From a virus, in the UHGV virus genome UHGV-0353264: a DNA stretch of 43,216 nt; one strand, given 5' to 3'. Positions 695 through 1,163 of this stretch are shown here, piece after piece. The translations under genes and the position numbers were made by a program. The first letter of the stretch is position 1. Each line of letters begins with the position of its first letter. Under the pieces are notes generated by a model. It did no database searches. It saw only the letters and a list, made by a program, of their open reading frames with translations, and had not been told where the DNA came from.

Positions 695-955
695 TTAAAT
701 TTTATCCGCGTGGTGCATCAGCACAAATTTATCCCACAACTGTTCTTCCGTCTCGACATGTTGCGGATCTTTCACAATAGTATTGGGGATCGGACACACC
801 TTCTGGCAGGTTGGTGTCTCGTAGTGCCCTACGCATTCGGTACACTTATCGCTGTTAATCTCGTAGATATGTTCACCCATCGAAATCGCCTCATTCGGGC
901 ATTCGGGTTCACACATATCACAATTAATACAGCGTTTAGTAATTAGTAAAGACAT
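695..955 (-). CDS. yfhL: 4Fe-4S dicluster ferredoxin YfhL (hybrid gene: host 3' part, phage-supplied first ~10 codons)
   Basis: 86 aa with two CxxCxxCxxxCP motifs ([30 protein letters not shown]). Near-identical to E. coli YfhL as recalled. The 5' end lies to the right of the att core. Confidence 0.85.
909..925. other. attL core (prophage left junction)
   Basis: 17-bp tcacacatatcacaatt is identical at 909-925 and 43098-43114. Sequences diverge completely on the outer side and are about 65 percent similar for 30 bp on the yfhL-start side. Confidence 0.6.
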
Positions 956-1163
956 TTCAATGGATTACCGTTAAATCATTTTAAAATCAGTAAGTTGTAT
1001 CGAGTTTGTATGCTTTACTGTCATTAACTTACTGTATGTTGATCCAGTGTATTTAACCTTGATAAACTCAGTCCAGCAACACAAAACCGCAACACATTGC
1101 ATTTTGTCCCGTAGAAAAGACTTGTATGTGTGAGCTTGTTTTCTGCGCCTACGCAGATAAGGA

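Follow-up and report, generated by a model that had tools for sequence, protein, structure and literature searches.

The stretch of DNA analysed here (the window; 43,216 nt of UHGV virus genome UHGV-0353264) has shoB at its left flank and the end of yfhH at its right flank. In uninterrupted Escherichia coli the gene order is acpS, shoB, yfhL, yfhH, and yfhL follows yfhH on the same strand after a gap of 55 bp. What separates the flanks in the window, an insertion into the first codons of the ferredoxin gene yfhL, is a complete-looking 42-kb prophage (Table 1). The 17-mer TCACACATATCACAATT is found exactly twice in the window, in direct orientation, once at each end of the prophage. Allowing for mismatches, this repeat can be extended to 37 nt with 84 % identity. 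In shuffled versions of the window, with up to two mismatches permitted, an average of 0.03 matches to the core was found, and a chance repeat was rejected on the basis of these counts together with the empty-site join and the attP contigs described below.

When window positions 1–925 were joined to 43115–43216, the product matched the uninterrupted locus in E. coli 4/4 with 100 % identity across join positions 701–1027 and with one mismatch in join positions 601–700. As the join of the host flanks reproduces the E. coli 4/4 locus, the native 5' end of yfhL is the right-hand copy. The 5' region of the uninterrupted gene corresponds to 43115–43216 (100 % identical) and not to 926–1163. Among the matches listed, the alignment of element-free genomes to the window stops at position 945.

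The left prophage arm together with int (window 926–2567) was present in 160 of 5426 complete E. coli genomes, one copy in each, and in E. coli IAI1 this segment is 100 % identical to the window. yfhL was annotated under the match in all 40 E. coli records among the matches listed. A near-identical prophage in BCE049 has been annotated with genes for terminase, portal, head, sheath-type tail and baseplate, lysis and repressor functions, a DNA polymerase/SNF2/VRR-NUC replication module and a tyrosine integrase. The structural half shows about 80 % likeness to Salmonella phage SEN34. The right-end cargo region of the prophage is unlike that of BCE049 and of 606R2-type prophages. Near this end is a gene (40276–41247, minus strand) for a 323-aa membrane acyltransferase (Acyl_transf_3), which may be a lysogenic conversion gene that modifies surface polysaccharide. 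A 253-aa protein encoded in the early region (5749–6510, minus strand) contains a TIR domain of the CAP12/Pycsar-effector type (PF10137, 108 bits) and is a candidate anti-phage defence gene product.

Table 1. Positions in the window of the prophage, its attachment sites and the genes and sites at both junctions
Feature	Position	Strand	Details	Basis
Hybrid yfhL CDS	695–955	-	86 aa; host DNA up to the crossover, phage DNA for codons 1–10 (or 1–12)
attL core copy	909–925		17 bp, common to attB and attP; codons 11–16 (N-C-D-M-C-E), within the first CxxCxxC cluster motif
Strand-exchange segment CACATATC	912–919		8 bp; codons 13–15	Sx181 lysogen
Prophage	926–43097		42.2 kb; SEN34-like myovirus structural module and SNF2/DNA polymerase replication module	BCE049 annotation, phage-collection matches
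Surrogate yfhL 5' end	926–955	-	ATG and codons 2–10, including cluster ligand Cys9
P' arm of attP	956–1169		Divergent spacer from hybrid yfhL to int	17-locus alignment with conserved blocks
IHF-like site AATCAGTAAGTTG	985–997	+	Consensus WATCARNNNNTTR	By consensus
LexA-type box TACTGTATGTTGATCCAGTG	1030–1049		CTGT-N8-CCAG at 1032–1047
Candidate int promoter	1039–1068	+	TTGATC-18-TAAACT, TG upstream of the -10; -35 inside the LexA-type box
Candidate arm-type integrase sites, P' arm	1077–1098	+	Two direct CAACACA(A/T)(A/T) repeats
Conserved block TATGTGTGAGC	1125–1135	+	Reverse complement resembles core TCACACAT
Tyrosine integrase	1170–2567	+	465 aa	Pfam PF00589, 30.4 bits; phrog_1, E 2e-26
Small HTH protein, candidate excisionase	2564–2764	-	AlpA/HTH_17 type; adjoins integrase
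89-aa ORF	42624–42890	-	First gene inside attR; same direction as host yfhH/yfhL transcription
Second LexA-type box CTGTGATTATGTACAG	42905–42920		Perfect CTGT-N8-ACAG; 14 bp upstream of the first attR-side prophage gene
P arm of attP	42991–43058		Three CAACACA repeats: 42991–42999 (-), 43038–43046 (+), 43050–43058 (+)
Orphaned native yfhL 5' end	43088–43144	-	18-codon ORF running into phage DNA
attR core copy	43098–43114		17 bp
Candidate native yfhL promoter	43180–43207	-	-35 TGGTCT 43202–43207, 16-nt spacer, TATAAT 43180–43185
yfhH 3' end, host gene	43200–43216	-	Stop codon 43200–43202	Uninterrupted-locus annotation mapped via the join

The yfhL gene at the left junction is complete. Its product matches the NCBIfam YfhL equivalog NF033683 (135.5 bits against a cut-off of 86, residues 1–78 covered) and the first CxxCxxCxxxCP motif is intact, with C9, C12, C15 and C19 all present. 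The sampled lysogens carry the yfhL annotation at this CDS. Between the core and the start codon, 19 of the 30 nt (63 %) are identical in the left-hand (926–955) and right-hand (43115–43144) copies, and the N-terminus is MSLLITKR in the left-hand copy and MALLITKKCI in the right-hand one. Integration restores an 86-aa YfhL, the phage giving the start codon and codons 1–10, including Cys9.

The free form of the attachment site was sought in IMG/VR using a degenerate pattern derived from the surrogate segment. This recovered 67 contigs, 62 of them in the attL form; an exact 40-mer of the predicted attP had no match in IMG/VR. In two metagenome contigs, L034 and L074, the right-end arm of the prophage is found directly to the left of the core, so that the surrogate start stands beside the P arm. 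Identity to the predicted attP is 98.2 % for L034 (498 nt) and 97.6 % for L074, and immediately beside the core, at window position 43097 on its left, the attP contigs have T in place of C. The P' arm of L034 is 98 % identical. Positions 1202–2508 of L034 align to window 41833–43134, and positions 2471–5682 to 908–4119. As these two alignments overlap only at the core, the joined attP is present among sequenced contigs. The idea that the surrogate start comes from the host was rejected, because the segment adjoins the P arm in these unintegrated contigs.

These comparisons bear out most of what a preliminary description, made from the letters of the window, had put forward: an intact yfhL reading frame with a 17-bp core that recurs exactly once more, about 65 % identity between the two core-to-start segments, the MSLLITKR and MALLITKK termini, and a prophage integrated in the 5' end of the gene, for which the empty-site match and the joined attP form now both speak. 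The excision product joining the two cores that it had envisaged is represented by the attP junction in L034 and L074, and the gene is a host/phage hybrid, as it had proposed, with a start codon and first 10 codons of phage DNA that are also found in the unintegrated phage.

The phage collection contained no free genome of this phage, and in three close records (ON470579, ON470582 and ON470588) the match to the window starts only at the helicase gene. ON470579 and ON470588 are entered in GenBank as complete genomes of phages and include tadA, pgpC and yfhH of the host. They yielded no attP because the integrase end is missing and host genes lie beyond attR, and they look like mis-bounded prophage extractions.

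The point of crossover could be narrowed with Sx181, the most divergent E. coli lysogen found. Its attL reads TTCA-CACATATC-GCAATTAAT and its attR reads GGCG-CACATATC-ACAATTGAT. As attP and attB of Sx181 differ on either side of CACATATC, strand exchange is confined to these 8 bp. The residues encoded by the core (N-C-D-M-C-E, in the first CxxCxxC motif) are a highly conserved stretch. An odd junction was seen in IMGVR_UViG_2554235145_000004, where the body of yfhL is followed by about 65 bp of P-arm sequence and then by the core and the P' arm. This may have been left behind by a tandem or earlier insertion.

In the integrase, R268, K301/K304, R386, H416/H417 and Y429 are invariant in 12 homologues. 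Five of the six positions of the R-K-H-R-H/W-Y catalytic set could be assigned; the first His, of HxxR, is not evident (NTMCR). The integrase had no match in the PDB sequence search or in NCBIfam. The small HTH protein encoded next to it scores 25.8 bits with HTH_17, just below the cut-off of 27 bits, and matches the excisionase families phrog_66 and phrog_1553; the gene at the homologous position in Serratia phage OS31 (see below) is annotated as an excisionase.

Within the P' arm, the ATCA-N5-TTR (WATCAR-N4-TTR) block that makes up the IHF-like site is kept in 16 related loci that have yfhL beside int. Seven of the eight matches to the AACACA-type repeat in the window lie within about 260 bp of the two cores, and the arrangement of CAACACA repeats in the P arm recurs in attR of Sx181 and in the attP contigs. 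A copy of the arm-type motif (CAACACAAA) also occurs in host DNA, in the native yfhH–yfhL spacer near attR (43161–43169, plus strand), maybe by chance. CTGT-N8-ACAG, or a version of it with one or two mismatches, occupies the same alignment column in the yfhL-adjacent loci. The number of LexA-type patterns in the window (4, with 2 expected) is not above chance by itself, and the boxes are candidate LexA sites on account of this positional conservation and of an annotated LexA site in OS31. The candidate int promoter has the best PWM score in the spacer (10.3), and in 9 of 14 loci a -10 is found at this same distance (101–102 nt) upstream of the int ATG.

Integrase relatives with 58–94 % identity were collected from one-genome-per-species data. 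They comprise 17 loci from about 12 genera of Enterobacterales, which include Kluyvera, Citrobacter, Shimwellia, Sodalis, Pantoea, Symbiopectobacterium, Providencia, Serratia, Erwinia and Shigella, and a divergently oriented yfhL adjoins int in all but one. About 215 bp separate the start codons of int and yfhL in 15 of these 16 loci, the other (L020) having extra sequence there. The first 81–86 residues of YfhL align unbroken in 15 of the 16, the exception being E. coli ECMA0423 (see below). Every one of the 16 starts with ATG or GTG where the native gene does and retains the frame and Cys9, with only conservative variation in the supplied N-termini. Among the attL loci from IMG/VR, the 86-aa ORF is intact in 58 of the 59 that could be scored, and in the last it is one residue longer.

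Three of the loci were irregular in other ways. The integrase of Raoultella scottii NZ_JARXNH020000036.1 (90 % identity) is the sole one of the 17 away from yfhL. Its ORF has an N-terminal extension, with a small same-strand ORF before it, and the core sequence was not found within the 7.4 kb of this locus. In E. coli ECMA0423 and Shigella flexneri SFBU1023, the integrase match is truncated at residue 366. The host-derived body of yfhL has frameshifts in the former and the C-terminus of YfhL is altered in the latter, and these represent either a decaying element and target copy or an assembly error.

The mean pairwise difference within codons 2–10 is 0.19, 0.07 and 0.38 at the first, second and third positions, respectively (15 loci). 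Such a pattern would be the signature of constraint on the protein and not on a DNA-binding site. As the layout is kept in about 12 genera and the supplied codons vary chiefly at their third positions, the start-codon repair of yfhL appears to be under selection. However, recombination with host genes could account for part of this codon periodicity, as the E. coli FP4 lysogen (NZ_CP072686.1) has a chimeric attL. At about 1190–1221 of this locus, native GATGCATTTTTTAGTGATTA is followed by phage GTAAAGACAT, giving MSLLITKK. Host sequence reaches to codon 4, and codons 1–3 and the upstream region are of the phage type. This arrangement would imply either recombination between host and phage at the start of yfhL or an attP variant updated from the host.

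Promoter activity has been reported for the yfhL 5' region (PMC2984482). The candidate native promoter has the best PWM score in the native upstream region (8.7); its perfect TATAAT ends 35 nt before the ATG and its weak -35 overlaps the yfhH stop codon. After integration, this candidate points into the prophage, and the first 16 codons of the native gene stay behind at attR. The native promoter and read-through from yfhH are lost to yfhL, since the topology of integration leaves them at attR. A consensus scan of 956–1163 found no sigma-70 consensus promoter facing yfhL. The best yfhL-facing PWM candidate there scored 7.5, below the median best score for shuffled sequence of 8.1, and when 13 related loci were put through the PWM scan along with the window, no promoter in this direction kept its position. 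No clear Shine–Dalgarno sequence precedes the surrogate ATG. Since neither a yfhL-facing promoter nor a Shine–Dalgarno sequence was recognised, the case for expression of the hybrid gene comes solely from sequence conservation. Judging from the conserved coding repair, yfhL is likely to be driven by phage DNA.

The preliminary description had the phage supplying a replacement promoter as well as a start codon. The native promoter region is indeed cut away, but 956–1163 contains no convincing or conserved sigma-70 promoter for yfhL. The conserved blocks in this interval seem better explained by attP arm and integrase functions than by a yfhL promoter, and the region that had been singled out is probably, in the main, an attP arm with an SOS-controlled int promoter.

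The explanation that we favour, and consider probable as a whole, is that a start carried by attP rebuilds yfhL at attL, with selection for the repair and a weak phage promoter as parts of it. A temperate phage has integrated by site-specific recombination, using its tyrosine recombinase, inside codons 13–15 of yfhL. Its attP carries a diverged yfhL start (ATG and 10 codons, including Cys9) beside the crossover segment, so that integration re-creates a full-length 86-aa YfhL at attL and leaves the first 16 native codons, the candidate for the native promoter and yfhH 42 kb off at attR. This structural part is secure. From the conservation described above, we infer that this repair is selected for. 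The hybrid yfhL is therefore probably still expressed, from a weak and so far unrecognised promoter in the P' arm. The elements within 956–1163 would serve attP and the integrase, namely the IHF-like site, the AACACA arm-type repeats and the LexA-type box over the int promoter candidate.

Alternatively, the ORF may be restored and yet the hybrid gene may lack useful transcription or translation, in which case lysogeny would amount to a knock-down of yfhL. The lack of a recognisable promoter or Shine–Dalgarno sequence upstream of the surrogate start is what this would predict, and expression of dusA after integration of an element at that gene is lower than in element-free cells (PMC8409611). 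In the accessible part of the 69-genome survey of Bobay et al. (PMC3603311), yfhL is listed among the genes 'disrupted' by prophages. However, retention of start, frame and Cys9 at 16 of 16 loci in about 12 genera, with a third-position bias, is hard to account for if the gene is not translated, and the near-invariable 86-aa ORF in the IMG/VR attL loci also speaks against silencing, which we consider unlikely.

It has also to be asked whether promoters are swapped at both junctions, so that yfhL becomes SOS-responsive and the stranded yfhH/yfhL promoter reads into the cargo slot at the right end. The first gene in this slot, the 89-aa ORF, has a longer, 143-aa version, of which the phrog_17793 profile spans residues 56–143. 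The corresponding slot in Sx181 and in OS31 is occupied by a DinI-family gene with a LexA box, and because of this the slot seems to be an exchangeable position for SOS-regulated cargo. In the free phage, attP lies between two LexA-type boxes. If promoters were swapped in this way, an SOS modulator of the prophage would be expressed in lysogeny from a housekeeping promoter, a prospect that we regard as unlikely.

The first half of that idea can be taken separately. The LexA-type box in the P' arm would then control a bidirectional promoter region, making yfhL inducible by DNA damage in lysogens. The palindrome is conserved in the int–yfhL spacer, and a weak leftward TGGACT-18-TACACT has a -10 that overlaps the box, in a position that recurs in four other loci. 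Against this, the leftward sequence fails to reach the shuffle median and has an unconserved -35, a TACTG half-site resembles a -10 by composition alone, and the box fits better with the rightward int promoter candidate, whose -35 it covers and whose position is the conserved one. SOS control of yfhL is thus very unlikely in our estimation.

Equally improbable is a reading in which 926–945 resembles yfhL only for integrase binding, the ORF being a by-product or refreshed from host yfhL: core-type sites normally flank the overlap region in lambda-type att sites, and the FP4 lysogen does show host/phage recombination inside the segment, but constraint on DNA binding would not yield 0.07 against 0.38 at second and third positions or keep a start codon 30 nt from the core at all 16 loci, and even in FP4 codons 1–3 and the upstream sequence are phage-type.

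Rebuilding of yfhL from an attP-borne start has well-documented counterparts. Genomic islands and prophages specific for dusA replace the 5' end of that gene and give it a new N-terminus (Farrugia et al. 2015, PMC4482086), and IMEVchUSA3 at dusA and SXT at prfC reportedly supply a new promoter too (Durand et al. 2021, PMC8409611). The dusA elements share with the window prophage the swap of the 5' coding end for a diverged in-frame copy, with the native 5' end and promoter at the other junction. They differ in that the target here is yfhL and the surrogate comprises only 10–12 codons, yet includes a metal ligand. The prophage would, by analogy, work like a dusA-associated integrase (DAI) element. 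It is not filed in the DAI family, which is defined by integration within dusA, and is set apart by its target, yfhL, in the window and in 16 of the 17 related loci. SXT/R391 ICEs at the prfC 5' end are conjugative elements and not phages, with another integrase and another target. Phage 21 and e14 at icd also carry a diverged duplicate of a gene end and keep the ORF length, according to the accessible part of PMC3603311, but it is the 3' end that they replace, leaving promoter and start untouched, whereas the window phage replaces the start and the promoter region. The preliminary description had set replacement of a 5' end apart from the usual integration at 3' ends. It does occur here, but its singularity was overstated; it is an established principle for which yfhL is another target, and no new mechanism is involved. 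Thus yfhL joins the short list (dusA, prfC) of genes in which the 5' end is replaced and not destroyed, and the published label 'disrupted' is corrected for this gene.

A described relative at the integration module is Serratia phage vB_SspS_OS31 (MT843276), with an integrase 76.5 % identical to that of the window. As far as the available portion of its description goes (Bujak et al. 2020, PMC7556043), OS31 is inducible with mitomycin C and was inserted in a Serratia gene for a 2[4Fe-4S] ferredoxin, where its 23-bp repeat (TCGCACATGTCGCAGTTGATGCA) overlaps the window core. The left end of OS31 encodes a YfhL-type N-terminus on the reverse strand, and the DinI-like gene and LexA site are at its right end. 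It differs in having a siphovirus (Hendrixvirinae) body and a Serratia host. In 2023, yfhL was named as a newly identified site for Stx2b prophages (PMC10675304, likewise PMC12029490, both in the portions available). Reconstitution of yfhL from the 5' side is not mentioned in the accessible portions of PMC3603311, PMC10675304, PMC12029490 or PMC7556043.

The same integrase–attP cassette is common to this myovirus-type prophage, to Stx2b-converting phages and to relatives in other Enterobacterales. As the cassette is shared, any effect on expression of the ferredoxin would touch about 3 % of sequenced E. coli, some Shiga-toxin producers among them. The 8-bp crossover segment and the four att forms offer a ready system to test promoter replacement and the possible SOS link. 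Stx2b prophages at yfhL differ from the window prophage in their late, structural and toxin modules. In STEC435 (NZ_CP129348.1), the stx2b prophage has the same int–attL module (99.5 %) and the same hybrid yfhL, and its SNF2/DNA polymerase early region is common with the window, but the tail is lambda-like. From this comparison, the two prophages appear to be the outcome of mosaic exchange of late modules around one integration cassette.
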